DNA of 64,000 bases. It comes from Shigella phage ChubbyThor. The position numbers were made by a program, and so were the translations under genes. Below are positions 9,342 to 14,348 of the stretch, piece by piece. The stretch lies in the sequence record OL615013. One strand, given 5' to 3'. Below the pieces are notes generated by a model. That model worked only from the letters and a program-made list of their open reading frames with translations, was not told the DNA's origin and made no database searches. Position 1 is the first letter of the stretch, and the number at the start of each line of letters is the position of its first letter.

Positions 9342-9914
9342 ATGCACATCAACACTGCTATCACGAAACACATCATTCCTTTGTTAGAGAAATATGAAGG
9401 GAAGAAATCAAAGGATATTTCGTTTGAAGATATATCCGCCGAAGTGAAGCGCTTGACACGTAAAGAAGTCAATTTCCGCCGTGTCCCCCCATCTGCAGTA
9501 GATCGGGCAAAGTCAGATTTGAACACGGCTTCCACTTTCTCCTTTAATATCGATGCCACGGCGACATTGGTATCCGAATTAACGCAGTCGTCACAAGCCC
9601 GTCGCGATCGCTTCCGCCATTTATGTGTGGCCAACGACTATCCTAGCACCCGTGTCGGCATCAAGCTTGAAGCAATCCGCTCCGAGGTGTGCTTCACAGT
9701 GAACTACATCCTGGAGCCTGAAACCAGCAACATTTATTTCGCAGCCATCATCGGCTTCTATGGTACATCCATTAATGGTTGGGCTGAGCGCGTTGAATTA
9801 AAAGAGACTCTGAACAAACACAGCATCCCGTCCACCCATTATATGTCGCTGGCCGCCGCTCGCGAATATGTGTATCTGCTCGAGCGTGATGTGAAGTTAA
9901 AAGTGGTAAAATAA
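9342..9914 (+). CDS. hypothetical protein
   Basis: 190-aa ORF starting with ATG, first plus-strand gene after divergent intergenic region 9008-9341. Confidence 0.5.
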   Translation: MHINTAITKHIIPLLEKYEGKKSKDISFEDISAEVKRLTRKEVNFRRVPPSAVDRAKSDLNTASTFSFNIDATATLVSELTQSSQARRDRFRHLCVANDYPSTRVGIKLEAIRSEVCFTVNYILEPETSNIYFAAIIGFYGTSINGWAERVELKETLNKHSIPSTHYMSLAAAREYVYLLERDVKLKVVK

Positions 9915-9971
9915 CGCTTTATTCAATAAAGAATTGCAGTAAAGTTAGTTGCATGGAAGGGAGGGAACACT

Positions 9972-10118
9972 ATGTTTTACATGATGTTACTCCTCATCCT
10001 CCTGATCGGGATTACCTTTACTCTCCTGGGTCTACCCGATCAGTCCGGTAAACAGTCGCCCACTTCGGCGCATCCGGTTTTGAGTGAAGGTTCGTCCGCA
10101 CTGCTGTGGGCAGTGTAG
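9972..10118 (+). CDS. small hydrophobic peptide (48 aa)
   Basis: ATG at 9972 preceded by GGAGGGAA SD at correct spacing; N-terminal hydrophobic helix MFYMMLLLILLIGITFTLLGL; below ORF-track length cut-off. Confidence 0.3.
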   Translation: MFYMMLLLILLIGITFTLLGLPDQSGKQSPTSAHPVLSEGSSALLWAV

Positions 10119-10119
10119 C

Positions 10120-12170
10120 TCAAAGAGGAGAGGACTTTTCAAATTAGCTGGTCTGCGGTAAAGTATTAAACACGAGGGAAACAGCGCATTGAGTTAGGCA
10201 TCTAAAGCCGACCTCACTAATCCCAGTCTCAGGGGCATGCGTGAATAGAGGCGTAATATCCACCTCGCTGGTGTCAGTGGACGCACTTGACCGTCGGAGA
10301 ACGAAACTCCCTGTTGTAGCGTGATTAGCTCAGAATCAGAGAGCACCCCGTTGGCAAGTCGACACCAACATATAAGGGGAGGTCGGGGGCGCTAATCTCC
10401 ATCACGCCGACAACATTATGAGTCTTCATAGAGGGTTCATAATGTTGCGTCAAAGGGCAACACAAAGGTTCCTGTTGGTTGAATTAACTTGATTCATAGT
10501 TCCTGCTGATCTTCCCGGATTCGAAGGAGCACCAACAGGCGAGGCCGGATGCGTAAGTTCCGGCAAATCGATGGCGAGGTGGTGCATTGGTGACACGGGG
10601 TAGCGCCCAGAAGTGTGGTTCGATTCCACACCCTCGCCAACAAATTAAAGGTTTTGTCAATAACGGGTTGCAGAGTATAGTTAACCCACTGAACGAAAAG
10701 CTGTTTGGGCACTAGACAAACACTTCGATGTGAACCCAGGACATGGCGTCTTGTGCTCAAACAGGTTTTCGTTCTCGTTGCTTGCGGCTTTGCGGGTTTT
10801 AAGAAACAGACCACAAAGATAAATGCAAATGATAACGCTTATCTGGCAGTAGCTTAACAGCTAAAACACCAGTGAGGTCTTCCGACTCCTCATAACAAAA
10901 TTCGGCGCACTAAAAATAGGCGGGAGGGTGTGATTAATAAGCTCCCGCCGACATCTGAGAGGGCACTTGATCGAGGTCGGTATCCGCTATACGGGATGCT
11001 GTAAAATGAATCCACGGAGTGTCCTCCCAGATGTGTCTCACAGCGCATCAGTTTGCAGTTATGCAAGCTTCAATAAGTTAAAACGCGCCTCAGGCGTTAT
11101 GGGATAAAGCCTTAAACAGTGGAATCCCCAGGGCTGGCAATCCCTGTTAAAGAAGTAGCCGTGTGGGGGTCAGCCCCCACAACGCAAAGTAGAGTCCTCT
11201 GGACGTTGAACTTTAACCCAAGGGTTGATTCACATGGTGAACGTTCCCGGCGGCGATAGTACAAGATGAGGGGTCATTGAAGTTCAGAGAACTCTACTTT
11301 GCGGCAGGTACTGCAAAACAGTGATCATCCTGACAAGCGTGATCACTCTTCGACAAAGCATCGCATCGTGGCTATCAACCACATCCTCGCTCTAGTGATG
11401 AGTGGTGTTATGTTCTGTCGGCCAGCCTCGTTTGGTCTGAACGTTAGAGGACAAGTGCTGAAGTGTGACGAAGACACTGAAGTGCGGGTTGTTTGGTGAA
11501 TCCTGCTAAGCGCAAGGGTTGAGTGGCAAAGAAACACCTGAGGGTAAGTCAACGCCATTATTCGCCATGATAATGGCATCGGGAGGCACCCGACGCTAAA
11601 CCGTTTGGCCTGGCGAAAGCAGGCAAGTATCTGGGGTCGATCACCTTGTCCTCTCCCAGGTGCGGGTTGTAGCATGGCTGCAACTCTGATGGCTCTGGGC
11701 ATCCGAATATCAGTTGTGGATGACTAGTGAAAAGAACGTTCAGAGCCATCAGAGTTGTGACCAACCCGATCTTGCAAGCCCGTATCCCGATCTGGTTAAG
11801 ACTTGCAAGTGGAAAGCCCTGGAAAAATAAACGCCTGTTGTGAGGCTACGGTGCAAGCCAATGACCAGCAGAAGCGCGTTGCCGTGAGGCGCACAAAGAG
11901 GCCTGCATGAACTGATCATGCACAAACGGGATAAAGGGTTGACAGTCCTTGGTTGGTTACACAACAGATTAAGGGGCGATAGTTTAAGGGATAGCTGTCC
12001 GGACAGCGAATCCTCATAGAGAACGGCTGGGAGGCCAAACCCAGCAGGTGAGGTGAAAATCCTCAAACCCCGCCAAACATTGTTGGACTGCCAGCAAGCT
12101 CCGGTCTACGGCAGGCGTGATGGGATCGCGGAATTCAAATACCGCCTTGGGAGCACCTAAATAAACCAGT
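10120..12170 (+). ncRNA. ORF-free, hairpin-dense region: candidate large structured non-coding RNA(s)
   Basis: No ORF with plausible composition or RBS on either strand over about 2 kb; many stable stems (e.g. GGCGGGAG/CTCCCGCC near 10920-10950, GTGGGGG/CCCCCAC near 11163-11183, 12-bp long-range pair GCAAAGTAGAGT/ACTCTACTTTGC); strand and boundaries undetermined. Confidence 0.3.
11680..11756. repeat. 17-bp perfect inverted repeat with 43-nt loop
   Basis: caactctgatggctctg (11680-11696) is the exact reverse complement of cagagccatcagagttg (11740-11756). Confidence 0.85.
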
Positions 12171-12193
12171 TGTTCAATAAACAATTGGTGAGT

Positions 12194-12394
12194 ATGATGA
12201 AAACGTTCGGTGATTTTATTGCTGAGTGGGATGGCCTCGCCACCGACAACAAAGAGATTGTCGAGTTTGTTGAAAAGCGAGGTGACAAGTGGGTTGTCCT
12301 TGACCACACCAAGACGAAGGTTCTTGGTACACATGACACCAAAGCTGACGCTGATGCCCAATTAAGGGCGATTGAAGCGAACAAGCACGGATAA
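12194..12394 (+). CDS. small hypothetical protein (66 aa)
   Basis: ORF track 12170..12394 begins at TTG; internal ATG at 12194 with GGTGAG SD is more plausible; stop lies 1-2 nt before tRNA-Asn. Confidence 0.35.
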   Translation: MMKTFGDFIAEWDGLATDNKEIVEFVEKRGDKWVVLDHTKTKVLGTHDTKADADAQLRAIEANKHG

Positions 12395-12395
12395 A

Positions 12396-12471
12396 GACGA
12401 TGTAGTTCAGTCGGTAGAACGGTGGACTGTTAATCCATATGTCACAGGTTCAAGTCCTGTCATCGTCGCCA
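12396..12471 (+). tRNA. tRNA-Asn (anticodon GTT)
   Basis: Hand-folded cloverleaf: acceptor GACGATG/CATCGTC, D-arm GTTC/GAAC, anticodon stem GTGGA/TCCAT with loop CTGTTAA, T-arm ACAGG-TTCAAGT-CCTGT, discriminator G, CCA encoded. Confidence 0.8.
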
Positions 12472-12727
12472 GACAATGGGTGTGAACGAAAGTGAATAGG
12501 CACGAAGTACGCGACCGACAAGCTCCAAGCCTCTGTCCAATAGCCGAACGGAATCTGAAGACGACGATAGTAACGCCCACCAAATTCAGAGTGTAGAGGC
12601 TACAGTAGTGCGCACCTCACGGGTTGCTACACCGGACACTCTGATACAAATCTGCCGCTGCGTGGATTAGCTGAGGAAGGATGGCCGATGTCCTCGAGTG
12701 TGGCCCAGCACGCAGCGGTAGACCAAA

Positions 12728-12811
12728 TGTGAGTGTGGCAGAGCGGTCGAATGCAGGAGACTGTAAATCTCCCCGTAACAGCGCGGTGGTTCGAATCCAT
12801 CCACTCACACC
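12728..12811 (+). tRNA. tRNA-Tyr (anticodon GTA), type II with long variable arm
   Basis: Acceptor GTGAGTG/CACTCAC, anticodon stem GGAGA/TCTCC loop CTGTAAA, T-arm GGTGG-TTCGAAT-CCATC, discriminator A, CCA encoded. Confidence 0.75.
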
Positions 12812-12952
12812 AAACACAGTAAGCGTTGCAGCCACGCTGTGTATCTGACCAGAAGGCACTGGTCGCCAGTTAACCAATCGGCGCTGAGAAGCGCGGGGAG
12901 TTGGGCTACGGCAGATCAAATGCTCAATCGGGTGTGAAGCCCGTTCAAATTT

Positions 12953-13036
12953 CGCGGGAGCCATAGGGGTTGGACAGTAGCCGACTGATCATCGGCGACG
13001 ATCACTGGACAGGTTCGAATCCTGATCTCCCGCTCC
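12953..13036 (+). tRNA. tRNA-like element, possibly tRNA-Ile (anticodon GAT) with irregular D/T arms
   Basis: Perfect 7-bp acceptor GCGGGAG/CTCCCGC + CCA; stem-loop GCCGA-CTGATCA-TCGGC fits an anticodon arm; TTCGAAT T-loop present but T-stem has a mismatch/extra nt; could not fold a canonical D-arm by hand. Confidence 0.4.
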
Positions 13037-13040
13037 AAAT

Positions 13041-13129
13041 TGGAAGGTTGCCCGAGAGGTTTAAGGGACTCGACTGCTAATCGAGTGGGGCTTTTAGCCC
13101 CCGAAGGTTCGAATCCTTCACCTTCCGCC
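13041..13129 (+). tRNA. tRNA-Ser (anticodon GCT), type II
   Basis: Acceptor GGAAGGT/ACCTTCC, 3-bp D-stem CCC/GGG, anticodon stem CTCGA/TCGAG loop CTGCTAA, variable-arm hairpin GGGGC/GCCCC, T-arm GAAGG-TTCGAAT-CCTTC, discriminator G, CCA encoded. Confidence 0.8.
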
Positions 13130-13540
13130 AAATTTGCGATCATCGCGGAAATCCCAGACGCGAGTGGAGGCCAGGGTGAAGACTGGCACATGGGCACTGA
13201 CGGCAAAGGTGTTCTACCTCCTGGAATTGGGTGGCCTGAATGGTAGGGAAAGCAGCCAAGCGTTGTGGGTTCAACTCCCACTCACCCAGCCCCAGATGGA
13301 ATGGGTCCATCATCGCAAATCATATTTTGGGCGTGACTTCCTGAAGAGTTAGAAGGTGTGCATGCCGACTCTCTCGTAATCGGGTGTTTAGGAAGTTAAG
13401 AAAATCGCGGCGAGGATAGTGAAATGCAAATAGCTTTCTCTACGCCGACGACTTCAGGTTCGATTCCTGACGCGCTCTCCCATAAGGCAGTACCAGTGCG
13501 AAGTGTGTAGTCTTTTCAACCCATCCCCATCGATGTGGTA

Positions 13541-13570
13541 TAGCCAGGTAAGGAAACCTGGCTTTCTTTT
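13541..13570 (+). terminator. intrinsic terminator closing the tRNA cluster
   Basis: Hairpin AGCCAGG-taaggaaa-CCTGGCT followed by TTTCTTTTG. Confidence 0.5.
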
Positions 13571-13694
13571 GCCCCCAGCTTAATGTCTTCTTATCACCCC
13601 AAATATGTAATCCTTCGTCGTAGTTTGTTCAATGATACAAAGGGGTTTAAAATTTAACCGTTAAAACCCCTATCATTGATTTGAGGATACACCA

Positions 13695-14348
13695 ATGCGT
13701 AATGTTTCTATCTGGGAAAATACTGAAGAATGGGAATTGCAGTCCACCCCAACTATAATCCGTATGTTCCAATACAAAGGCAACAAGCGTACTCTGAACG
13801 AGTTCTTGTCGCCGAATTATATCCATCGCGGCTCCCAGCTCGCTCCGCGTGATCTCAACCAGCCTGGCGAATGCACACCCTTTGATCTCGGCGTGAAGGG
13901 GCAGGTTGTCCTTATGGGTTACTCTAGTATTACCGCCGCCGAAGAGGGCAACGGTCAACCGTTCAAAGTATTCCATACACGCGAACAGGCAATCCATTGG
14001 CTGGTCAAAAACTTCTTCTATTTCTATGGCGATGAAAGCGCAACCCGCCGTTGTCGTAAAGCCGTTTCTATGGACTTCGACGCAGAGAATCGGAAGTACC
14101 AGGCCATGGCTCGCGAGTATGAAAAGAATCTCGTCAAGCCTGTCACTGTGGTTGACAACAAATACGTCGCTGAAGCCCCGCGTCATACAGTGAATATCGT
14201 TCCGGCCTGTGAAACGAAAGCGCCGACACCGCCTACTCCTCCGGTCAGTCGTGTTCTGAATGATCAGGGCGCTCCGGTAAAACAAAAGGCCAAGAAATCG
14301 TCATTTGTGGATAACATGATGAAGTTCCTGCGGTTGTTCGGGAAATAA
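13695..14348 (+). CDS. hypothetical protein
   Basis: 217-aa ORF, ATG start with GAGGAT SD upstream. Confidence 0.5.
   Translation: MRNVSIWENTEEWELQSTPTIIRMFQYKGNKRTLNEFLSPNYIHRGSQLAPRDLNQPGECTPFDLGVKGQVVLMGYSSITAAEEGNGQPFKVFHTREQAIHWLVKNFFYFYGDESATRRCRKAVSMDFDAENRKYQAMAREYEKNLVKPVTVVDNKYVAEAPRHTVNIVPACETKAPTPPTPPVSRVLNDQGAPVKQKAKKSSFVDNMMKFLRLFGK

Follow-up and report, generated by a model that had tools for sequence, protein, structure and literature searches.

A predicted folded RNA upstream of the tRNA cluster of Ackermannviridae phages and its relation to a wide family of phage RNAs

The closest described counterparts of the element examined here are phage RNAs that lie near transfer RNA (tRNA) genes. 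GOLLD and ROOL are large structured RNAs of unknown function that often occur near tRNAs and in phages or prophages, and are possibly co-transcribed (PMC5737381). STnc100 is a known small RNA (sRNA) family of prophages and phages, and is related to PasD (bioRxiv 10.64898/2026.05.13.724894). In phage T4, rnaC and rnaD (species 1 and 2) are small stable RNAs of unknown function beside the tRNA genes. Here we describe an element in a 64,000-nucleotide (nt) stretch of Shigella phage ChubbyThor (sequence record OL615013; the whole stretch is referred to as the window), an Ackermannviridae phage that is 97% identical to Shigella phage Ag3 across 9900-13700. The element lies within ~2.2 kb without credible open reading frames (ORFs) upstream of a tRNA cluster, and comparison with relatives predicts it to be a folded non-coding RNA of ~280 nt, the core of which is a divergent member of a wide family of structured RNAs in very different phages.

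The element resembles GOLLD and ROOL in being a complex-folded non-coding RNA near tRNAs in phages, but differs from them in size (~130-280 nt, compared with about 580-800 nt) and in having no Rfam match. A search of Rfam 15, whose families include GOLLD, ROOL, RNase P, tmRNA, group I/II introns and riboswitches, over 11680-11960 on the + strand gave no match at the gathering score and none at E ≤ 10; at these thresholds, only tRNAs, a partial STnc100 match upstream and noise were returned. STnc100 (RF02076) was rejected as the identity of the element, as its match (11491-11601) lies upstream; both are phage RNA modules, adjacent in the same ORF-free stretch, but they are separate modules. Homology to T4 rnaC and rnaD was also rejected: local alignments were no better than those of shuffled sequences, and the covariance model of the wide family (R2, see below) had no match in the T4 tRNA region.

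The sequence-only reading of this DNA had reported a perfect 17-bp inverted repeat around a 43-nt loop, followed by two palindromic octamers, each preceded by a CCCGATCT-like sequence. The repeat is indeed present (CAACTCTGATGGCTCTG / CAGAGCCATCAGAGTTG, 17 nt, 100% complementary), with its arms at 11681-11697 and 11741-11757, that is, 1 nt further along than reported, and with 43 nt between them. The octamer CTTGCAAG occurs exactly twice in the 64 kb, at 11771-11778, as reported, and at 11802-11809, 10 nt away from the second position that had been given (11812-11819). CCCGATCT precedes both copies as described, at 11765-11772, where its last 2 nt are shared with the first octamer, and at 11786-11793, with 8 nt left before the second. 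Two or more octamer copies per 64 kb were found in 29 of 100 shuffled sequences, so that the count alone is not unusual; the unusual point is that the sole two copies lie only 31 nt apart. Five inverted repeats with a 12-nt seed and arms within 150 nt were found in the whole window, three of them in the ORF-free stretch, and the region 11655-11970 folds better than 100 of 100 shuffled sequences on both strands (z = -4.2 on +, -4.35 on -). A search for terminator-like sites returned none at 11681-11757, where the stem is followed by GUGACCAACCC and the combination of a G+C-rich stem and a U run that marks intrinsic terminators was not found. The decisive evidence that the feature is more than chance is its conservation in relatives with compensatory changes.

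Alignments of first 11 and then 21 distinct Ackermannviridae sequences yielded one consensus fold from both. In the 21 sequences, this fold comprises 79 pairs, with 97.2% paired; 27 pairs changed on both sides, compared with 1-6 in controls in which the partners were slid by 1-3 columns, and none of 500 shuffles reached the observed covariation score. G.U cells far outnumber A.C cells (89 vs 14), and therefore the + strand is the RNA strand. The repeat forms a conserved helix, in which 9 of 16 pairs changed on both sides and the G.U pairs are valid on the + strand only, and the two octamers pair with each other. The repeat and both octamers are thus parts of one larger fold, which the sequence-only reading had overlooked; of its suggestions, that of an RNA-level hairpin was borne out by these changes. 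A coding sequence was rejected because no frame is conserved: + strand stops occur in all three frames in 24 of 24 homologues, stops occur in all six frames in CBA120-type and Vibrio sequences, and the open minus-strand frame differs between groups.

The same data bear on the suggestion that the element acts as DNA, be it as operator half-sites, a cruciform, an origin, or a recombination or homing target. In 12 of the 21 sequences, the octamers read CTTACAAG / CTTGTAAG, which are non-palindromic and mutually complementary; in phiMAM1-type phages (TTTCACATG / CATGTGAA) and in metagenome contig L190 (CTCACATG / CATGTGAG), they are again not self-complementary but complementary to each other. The self-complementarity of each half-site that an operator pair would show is therefore missing, and octamers that are no longer palindromes but still pair with each other cannot be two palindromic operators. 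BLAST homology between phages is indeed interrupted at the stem edges, 11964/11965 is a precise site of tRNA gene insertion or deletion, and homing endonuclease genes are present in this region of relatives, as might be expected of a recombination or homing site. However, the 89:14 ratio of G.U to A.C is not expected of a DNA duplex element, no ORF is conserved, and the same fold occurs with entirely different helix sequences in the RNA family of unrelated phages. A DNA-level element, including the recombination or origin element proposed from the sequence alone, is thus very improbable, and the homology breaks at the stem edges reflect the shuffling of RNA modules between phages.

The repeat corresponds to an outer stem, P0 (11681-11697/11741-11757, + strand, 17 bp perfect), with a variable apical part (11698-11740). 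In the alignment, P0 has 16 aligned pairs, with 96% of cells paired. The apical part is reduced to a few nt in Dickeya phages, which keep the stem partly through G.U pairs; in phiMAM1-type phages P0 is replaced by a tRNA-like T-arm and CCA, and Vibrio phages lack it in this form. P0 is a lineage-specific outer stem, which adjoins the closed core without a linker. A small hairpin ahead of P0 can be extended to 10 bp (GGGUUGUAGC/GCUGCAACUC, 11664-11686); this extension would take up 6 nt at the start of the P0 5' arm, so that the base of P0 and the extended hairpin cannot form together, and the alignment is compatible with both the extended small hairpin and the full P0.

It was proposed that the repeat is an RNase III-type processing site, in which case cutting of P0 would part the upstream STnc100-like module from the core, as a role additional to that of the core. 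Such hairpins serve as RNase III sites in T7-type phages, and the long perfect stem stands exactly at the module boundary, with its 9 compensatory pairs kept across four genera even where the apical part is only a few nt. On the other hand, a stem of 17-18 bp is near the lower end of the lengths that E. coli RNase III cuts efficiently, a helix stacked on P1 could be purely architectural, and the stem is absent from phiMAM1-type and Vibrio relatives and from the wide family, which also indicates that it is not needed for the core. We therefore consider processing by RNase III at this stem unlikely.

The closed core (11757-11960, 204 nt, + strand) is defined by the consensus fold and its pair counts as a four-way junction of P1, P2, an inner domain closed by P3, and P8. 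P1 (GUGACCAACC, 11757-11766 / GGUUGGUUAC, 11951-11960) closes the core. The octamers form the stem of the P2 hairpin (11767-11812), in which 100% of cells are paired and 4 pairs changed on both sides, the central pair being A-U in 12 and G-C in 9 sequences. Across the whole family, no motif is more conserved than the P2 apex, GCCCGUAUCCC-GAUC-UGGUUAAGAC (11779-11801). P3 (CCUG, 11818-11821 / CGGG, 11927-11930) closes the inner domain (11818-11930), within which compensatory changes are seen in P4 (11830-11840/11866-11880), P5 (11844-11847/11856-11859) and P7 (UGCAUGA-ACUGA-UCAUGCA, 11904-11922). P7 is followed by the arrangement of CAAAC and the P3 3' strand, which is common to the wide family, where it reads GCAAAC-CCGG. 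The last hairpin, P8 (AGGG-UUGACAGU-CCUU, 11935-11950, 100% of cells paired), directly abuts the 3' strand of P1.

Several sequence patterns in the inner domain hint at a tertiary structure. In a kink-turn, a helix is followed by a 3-nt bulge and then by tandem sheared G.A/A.G pairs that lead into a second helix. Between P4 and P5 (11841-11865, + strand), the non-bulged strand reads U-G11842-A11843 and then GGCU, and the bulged strand reads AGCC, the 3-nt bulge AAU (11860-11862), and then G11863-A11864-C; the tandem G.A/A.G positions are invariant in 21 of 21 sequences and the bulge varies (AAU, AAA or GAU). This pattern fits the consensus and suggests a putative kink-turn. It is followed by a tetraloop hairpin, GCC-GUGA-GGC (11881-11890), the loop of which is always GNRA in relatives (GUGA, GCGA, GUAA or GCAA, with GUAA in the three Vibrio versions, and GUAA or GCAA in the wide family). 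In addition, the P5 loop GUGC (11851-11854) could form a pseudoknot with GCAC (11891-11894) after the GNRA hairpin: 96% of cells are paired, and one pair changed on both sides (U-A in 16, A-U in 5 sequences). This pseudoknot is tentative, because the covariation may reflect only one or two evolutionary events.

A covariance model built from the Ackermannviridae core (R1) scores 251 bits on the window, by construction. The same model gives full-length matches at the syntenic position in three Vibrio phage lineages (35.1, 19.0 and 16.2 bits; E values of 1e-10, 5e-5 and 8e-4), which end 7-45 nt ahead of the first tRNA of the cluster. There, the helix sequences are entirely different, for example in P1 (AAGCAAGG/CCUUGCUU) and P3 (CUGG/CCAG), and the P2 apex, the A-rich junction, the GNRA hairpin and CAAAC are kept. 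The core is thus conserved in all Ackermannviridae sampled except Erwinia phage Bue1. Outside of the phages, the stem and core had no match in 5,426 E. coli genomes, and a scan for 18-mers across 185,579 species genomes returned chance matches only, plus one 526-bp contig. That contig (L061; NZ_JAALLN010000218.1, Flavobacterium poyangense assembly) contains part of the Ackermannviridae core (nhmmer E = 3e-29) and most likely represents phage contamination of the assembly. Within IMG/VR, a scan with a two-part pattern gave chance extras only, and a search with the Vibrio flanking protein as query found nothing.

The wide family was found with a degenerate pattern for the P2 apex, GWATCCCKDTMTGGTYAAGMC, which occurs in 48 further IMG/VR contigs of 8-358 kb; in metagenomes, at least 120 contigs match the pattern. 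The counts of sites and their surroundings given here and below refer to the matches listed, which comprise 104 distinct sites with the family-type GCCC prefix and 28 without it. The family-type matches are not tRNAs and share an architecture of 130-220 nt. Its 5' part consists of P1, (A/U)UGAG, P2 with the same apex, the junction CAAUAGU and the 5' strand of P3; the middle consists of UGGCUACC, the GNRA hairpin, the P7 hairpin, GCAAAC and the 3' strand of P3; and the 3' part consists of P8 with the loop UGGAAAG and then the 3' strand of P1. An alignment of 21 family-type sequences (A8) supports 29 pairs, with 92% paired compared with 62% in shuffles, and 24 of the 29 pairs changed on both sides. 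The members include jumbo-sized contigs as well as N4-like Gamaleyavirus phages, a Klebsiella phage, and lambdoid contigs, where they lie next to N/nutL; in these last three groups they are always unannotated.

A second covariance model (R2), built without any Ackermannviridae sequence, gave full-length matches in 48 of 48 viral contigs (E values of 1e-5 to 1e-30, GC contents of 37-68%), with scores of 34-42 bits for their most divergent members. R2 recovers 11760-11831 of the window at 39.6 bits (E = 1.6e-7), aligns at full length with CBA120 (47.9 bits) and Ag3 (46.6 bits), and scores 37.4, 33.4 and 20.1 bits on the Vibrio phages. In common and in the same order are P1, the P2 apex, a 7-nt junction, P3, a GGCUAC segment, the GNRA hairpin, P7, CAAAC with the P3 3' strand, P8 and the P1 3' strand. 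The window has the P2 hairpin with the apex GCCCGWAUCCC-NNNN-UGGUYAAGAC, the GNRA hairpin, CAAAC-GGG (11923-11930), and a terminal hairpin that abuts P1. By contrast, its P8 loop is UUGACAGU and not UGGAAAG, a heptamer that is found in the window at the P2/P3 junction (11810-11816), and for this reason we place the window in a divergent branch. The enterobacterial Ackermannviridae versions are also longer (204 nt, compared with about 130-220 nt in the wide family), with a P4/P5 arm containing the putative kink-turn and the outer stem P0 as extras, and they have UGGAAAG at the P2/P3 junction in place of the P8 loop. The Vibrio versions are intermediate, with the P8 loop UGGAAGA or UGGGAGA; for Vibrio phages and the wide family taken together, the conserved P8 loop is UGGAAAG or UGGAAGA. 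Overall, as judged from sequence and predicted fold, these matches show the core of the window to be a divergent member of a structured RNA family that is spread over very different phages.

The wide family, like the core, has no Rfam match (none at E ≤ 10 for one representative, and none at the gathering score for 10 loci). A resemblance to bacterial RNase P RNA was considered, as the junctions AAUAG-U-CCGG and CAAAC-CCGG-C of many family members recall GAAAG-U-CCGG and ACAGAAC-CCGG-C of its P4, and the family also adjoins tRNA genes. However, the P4-like helix covaries freely (CCAC/GUGG, GAAG/CUUC, ACGA/UCGU), so that CCGG is not conserved. RNase P RNA was rejected, with no Rfam match at E ≤ 10, an alignment with E. 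coli rnpB no better than shuffles, and no R2 match on rnpB, and the resemblance is treated as coincidental. Nothing was found in the searchable literature on non-coding RNAs of Ackermannviridae, on phage-encoded RNase P RNA, or on the printed motif. The family is thus absent from Rfam 15 and without a description that we could find in that literature; it may be among the unnamed candidates in a catalogue of 10,006 candidate viral RNAs (PMC10690425).

The surroundings of the core suggest how it might be expressed. A consensus scan identified a sigma70-like promoter on the + strand, TTGTCA-16 nt-TATAGT (10654-10681), whose hexamers and flanks (TTTT.TCAATAA ... AGTATAGTTA) are invariant in 8 phages of 5 genera, while the surroundings diverge. 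This promoter-like element is the most conserved piece of the ORF-free stretch, and Vibrio Ackermannviridae have a comparable one (TTTGGTYA...GAGTATAAT), placed 40-140 nt ahead of the core. After the tRNAs, an intrinsic-terminator-like hairpin with a T-run is found on the + strand at 13542-13563 (AGCCAGGT-AAGGAA-ACCTGGCT, then TTCTTTTGCC). From their consensus patterns, the two are likely the start and the end, respectively, of a transcription unit that carries the RNA modules and the tRNAs.

In most relatives, a tRNA gene stands directly 3' of the core, at a position equivalent to 11964/11965 (+ strand) of the window, which has none there. In Ag3, tRNA-Ser(tga) is inserted exactly at 11964/11965. 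A tRNA, tRNA-Met where typed, follows P1 by 5-10 nt in Kuttervirus, Taipeivirus, Miltonvirus, and Vibrio phages K364 and D493, and tRNA-Gly follows the core by 45 nt in Vibrio phage 1.255.O. In phiMAM1, the core lies between the tRNA-like T-arm with CCA and tRNA-Met. Dickeya phages, like the window, are without a tRNA directly after the core. Across the wide family, 40 of the 104 sites (38%) have a tRNA within 2 kb, and 25 have at least three; at 14 of the 104, the core starts 22-30 nt after a tRNA on the same strand. A terminator-like hairpin with a T-run follows within 90 nt in 6 of 73 elements (e.g., L146, L172, L177), as in stand-alone sRNA genes, and a ribosome-binding site with an ORF start lies within 80 nt downstream in 29 of 73 (about 40%). 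No neighbouring protein recurs, as at most 4 of the 104 loci share a neighbour family.

Taken together, the repeat and the octamers are helices of a single structured + strand non-coding RNA, and as the likely explanation we favour a discrete, stable RNA that is co-transcribed with tRNAs. A gene for a discrete RNA is indicated by the members with their own terminators, by those that start 22-30 nt after tRNAs, and by the placement of the core in phiMAM1. In such a scheme, host RNA polymerase would transcribe the region early from the conserved promoter at 10654-10681, giving a long, untranslated precursor that would carry the STnc100-like module and the tRNAs and end at the terminator near 13563. 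The core would fold independently into a compact tertiary structure, in which the kink-turn would turn P5 back toward the nucleotides that follow the GNRA hairpin, with possible docking of the GNRA loop on the invariant P2 apex. The enzymes that mature tRNAs would release the core as a discrete stable RNA, with RNase P setting its 3' end where a tRNA follows within 5-10 nt, and the core, once free, would act by binding a protein or a second RNA. As for the long outer stem, it would be an accessory of particular lineages that may contribute to defining or protecting the 5' end.

A possible alternative, which we regard as somewhat doubtful, is that the folded RNA acts in cis, as a leader, on its own transcript only. 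Such a leader might respond to a ligand or protein, stabilise the 5' end as a structure, guide the processing of the adjacent tRNA, or signal processive antitermination over the long untranslated array of tRNAs and other RNAs. In keeping with this, the core is the first element after the conserved promoter in Vibrio Ackermannviridae, 7-45 nt before the first tRNA; one subgroup of the wide family lies just upstream of the N/nutL region in lambdoid phages; and the combination of invariant junction nucleotides with freely covarying stems is typical of riboswitch-like aptamers. The frequent ORF starts downstream also agree with a leader, but the downstream genes belong to no shared family, unlike those of riboswitches, which are functionally related. 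Furthermore, certain members have a terminator of their own and stand alone, others are placed between two tRNAs, an alternative terminator/anti-terminator fold is not apparent in the interval from the core to the next gene, and in the window over 200 nt separate the core from the next gene or tRNA.

Several observations weigh against a discrete RNA of the tRNA region, or against its membership in the family and its detailed structure. Only 38% of the wide-family sites have a tRNA within 2 kb, the 29 elements ahead of an ORF start fit a cis-acting leader equally well, and no recurrent neighbour among the 104 loci points to a protein partner. Release as a discrete RNA is inferred for every member, and in the window and the Dickeya phages, where no tRNA comes right after the core, the 3' end cannot be the work of RNase P. 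R2 is confident in the window for the P2 part only, the full-length alignment being in close relatives, and neither R1 nor R2 finds the core in Erwinia phage Bue1, although it belongs to the Ackermannviridae. Finally, the kink-turn, tetraloop docking and pseudoknot are readings of sequence patterns, with a single covarying pair in support of the pseudoknot.

The family could also be a functional RNA related to tRNA and carried alongside phage tRNA genes, either as a processed tRNA mimic or as an RNA that docks tRNAs, and we think this a long shot. A mimic might be a decoy for host defence nucleases that target tRNAs or for tRNA-binding factors, and a docking RNA might bind the tRNA elbow via T-loop-like modules, thereby protecting or chaperoning phage tRNAs. 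This idea draws on the topology of the core, in which four helices meet and the last hairpin abuts P1, as in a cloverleaf; on the G-[UGGAAAG]-C hairpin of the wide family, which resembles the T-loop pattern and abuts P1; and on the invariant P2 apex. It also draws on the frequent placement in tRNA clusters, with starts 22-30 nt after a tRNA, the spread across unrelated phages and the lack of a common protein neighbour. Neither ARAGORN nor the Rfam tRNA model called the core a tRNA.

Other tRNA-like pieces are found around the core. At 10574-10640 (+ strand), a tRNA-like element missed by ARAGORN has the acceptor stem GGCGAGG/CCUCGCC, the end ...CCUCGCC-AACA, a T-arm of UGUGG-UUCGAUU-CCACA and a shortened anticodon region; a weak Rfam match to tRNA-Sec covers 10573-10638 (19.4 bits), and the homologous position in phiMAM1 holds a 92-nt 'tRNA-Cys(aca)'. 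Downstream of the core, a conserved block at 11975-12075 (+ strand) folds into a four-way junction reminiscent of a cloverleaf, in which GGCG/CGCC is the outer stem and three hairpins are present. It shows some compensatory changes, follows tRNA-Met in relatives, and has a weak match to R2 (10.3 bits, E = 1.1). Orphan 3' parts of tRNAs, each with a T-arm, an acceptor strand and CCA but without a tRNA call, occur before the core in phiMAM1 (L009, about 2960-2990), before tRNA-Lys in Erwinia phage Bue1 (L134, about 9620-9668), and after the post-core block in Dickeya phage RC-2014 (L003, alignment A6, columns 285-312). Weak tmRNA-like (transfer-messenger RNA) matches to Rfam were seen at 10708-10909, and ARAGORN found no tmRNA.

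Upstream of P0, the STnc100-like sRNA module spans 11446-11680 (+ strand), with an outer stem (11446-11455/11645-11654) and a 3' hairpin (11670-11673/11677-11680). In the window, the partial match to RF02076 (32.9 bits, E = 1.3e-4) is below the gathering score; in L005 and L008, the homologous stretch matches RF02076 at full length and above gathering (48.7 bits). The match in L005 ends at the small hairpin before the long stem, and the STnc100 model covers no part of the element described here. An 11-nt direct repeat, GTGCGGGTTGT, bounds the module (11482-11492 and 11660-11670), and CBA120-type phages have a single GTGCGGGTTGT copy and no STnc100-like module, yet retain the stem and core. The arrangement looks like the outcome of recombination between the GTGCGGGTTGT repeats, by which the module would have been acquired or lost. 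A second long inverted repeat, 11183-11204 / 11282-11303 (22-nt arms, 91% complementary, 77 nt apart), has an architecture like that of the repeat in P0, and its block is missing from CBA120.

The ORF-free stretch is flanked by a conserved 190-aa gene (9342-9914) and a 74-aa ORF, after which tRNA-Asn, tRNA-Tyr and tRNA-Ser follow. An ORF-poor gap is present at the same position in every genus examined (Agtrevirus, Kuttervirus, Limestonevirus, Taipeivirus, Miltonvirus, Nezavisimistyvirus and Vibrio-infecting members), and is shorter (<1 kb) in the Vibrio phages. The conserved blocks of the stretch form a mosaic, being present, absent or reordered among phages. The only credible small gene, where the ORF-free stretch begins, encodes a hydrophobic 48-aa protein (9972-10118, + strand), which is kept in relatives and belongs to phrog_8415 (unknown function); the neighbouring proteins (190, 74, 217 and 48 aa) match families of unknown function only. 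Public annotation of the region is empty or consists of tiny ORFs. In L004 (2912-3025), L006 (1362-3524) and L007 (2842-3256), small proteins are annotated over the RNA modules, including a 37-aa 'reverse transcriptase domain-containing protein' and a 38-aa 'helicase RecD/TraA family', and these are probably spurious calls.

Ackermannviridae, including ViI, CBA120, Ag3, Det7, LIMEstone and their relatives, are widely used in biocontrol and therapy. In these phages, a stretch that has been annotated as nothing or as spurious small ORFs is predicted to encode a conserved, complex-folded RNA, and this RNA is linked to a family in unrelated phages, from N4-like and lambdoid phages to jumbo-sized contigs, with GC contents from 37 to 68%. 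The model presented here would allow annotators to put an end to ORF calls across this RNA. RNAs that combine a four-way junction with a kink-turn, a GNRA hairpin and junction nucleotides that do not vary usually act specifically, through binding of a ligand or protein or through catalysis. A new class of RNAs that travels with phage tRNA genes would bear on the question of why phages carry tRNA clusters, and on how these clusters interplay with host defences and RNA processing.

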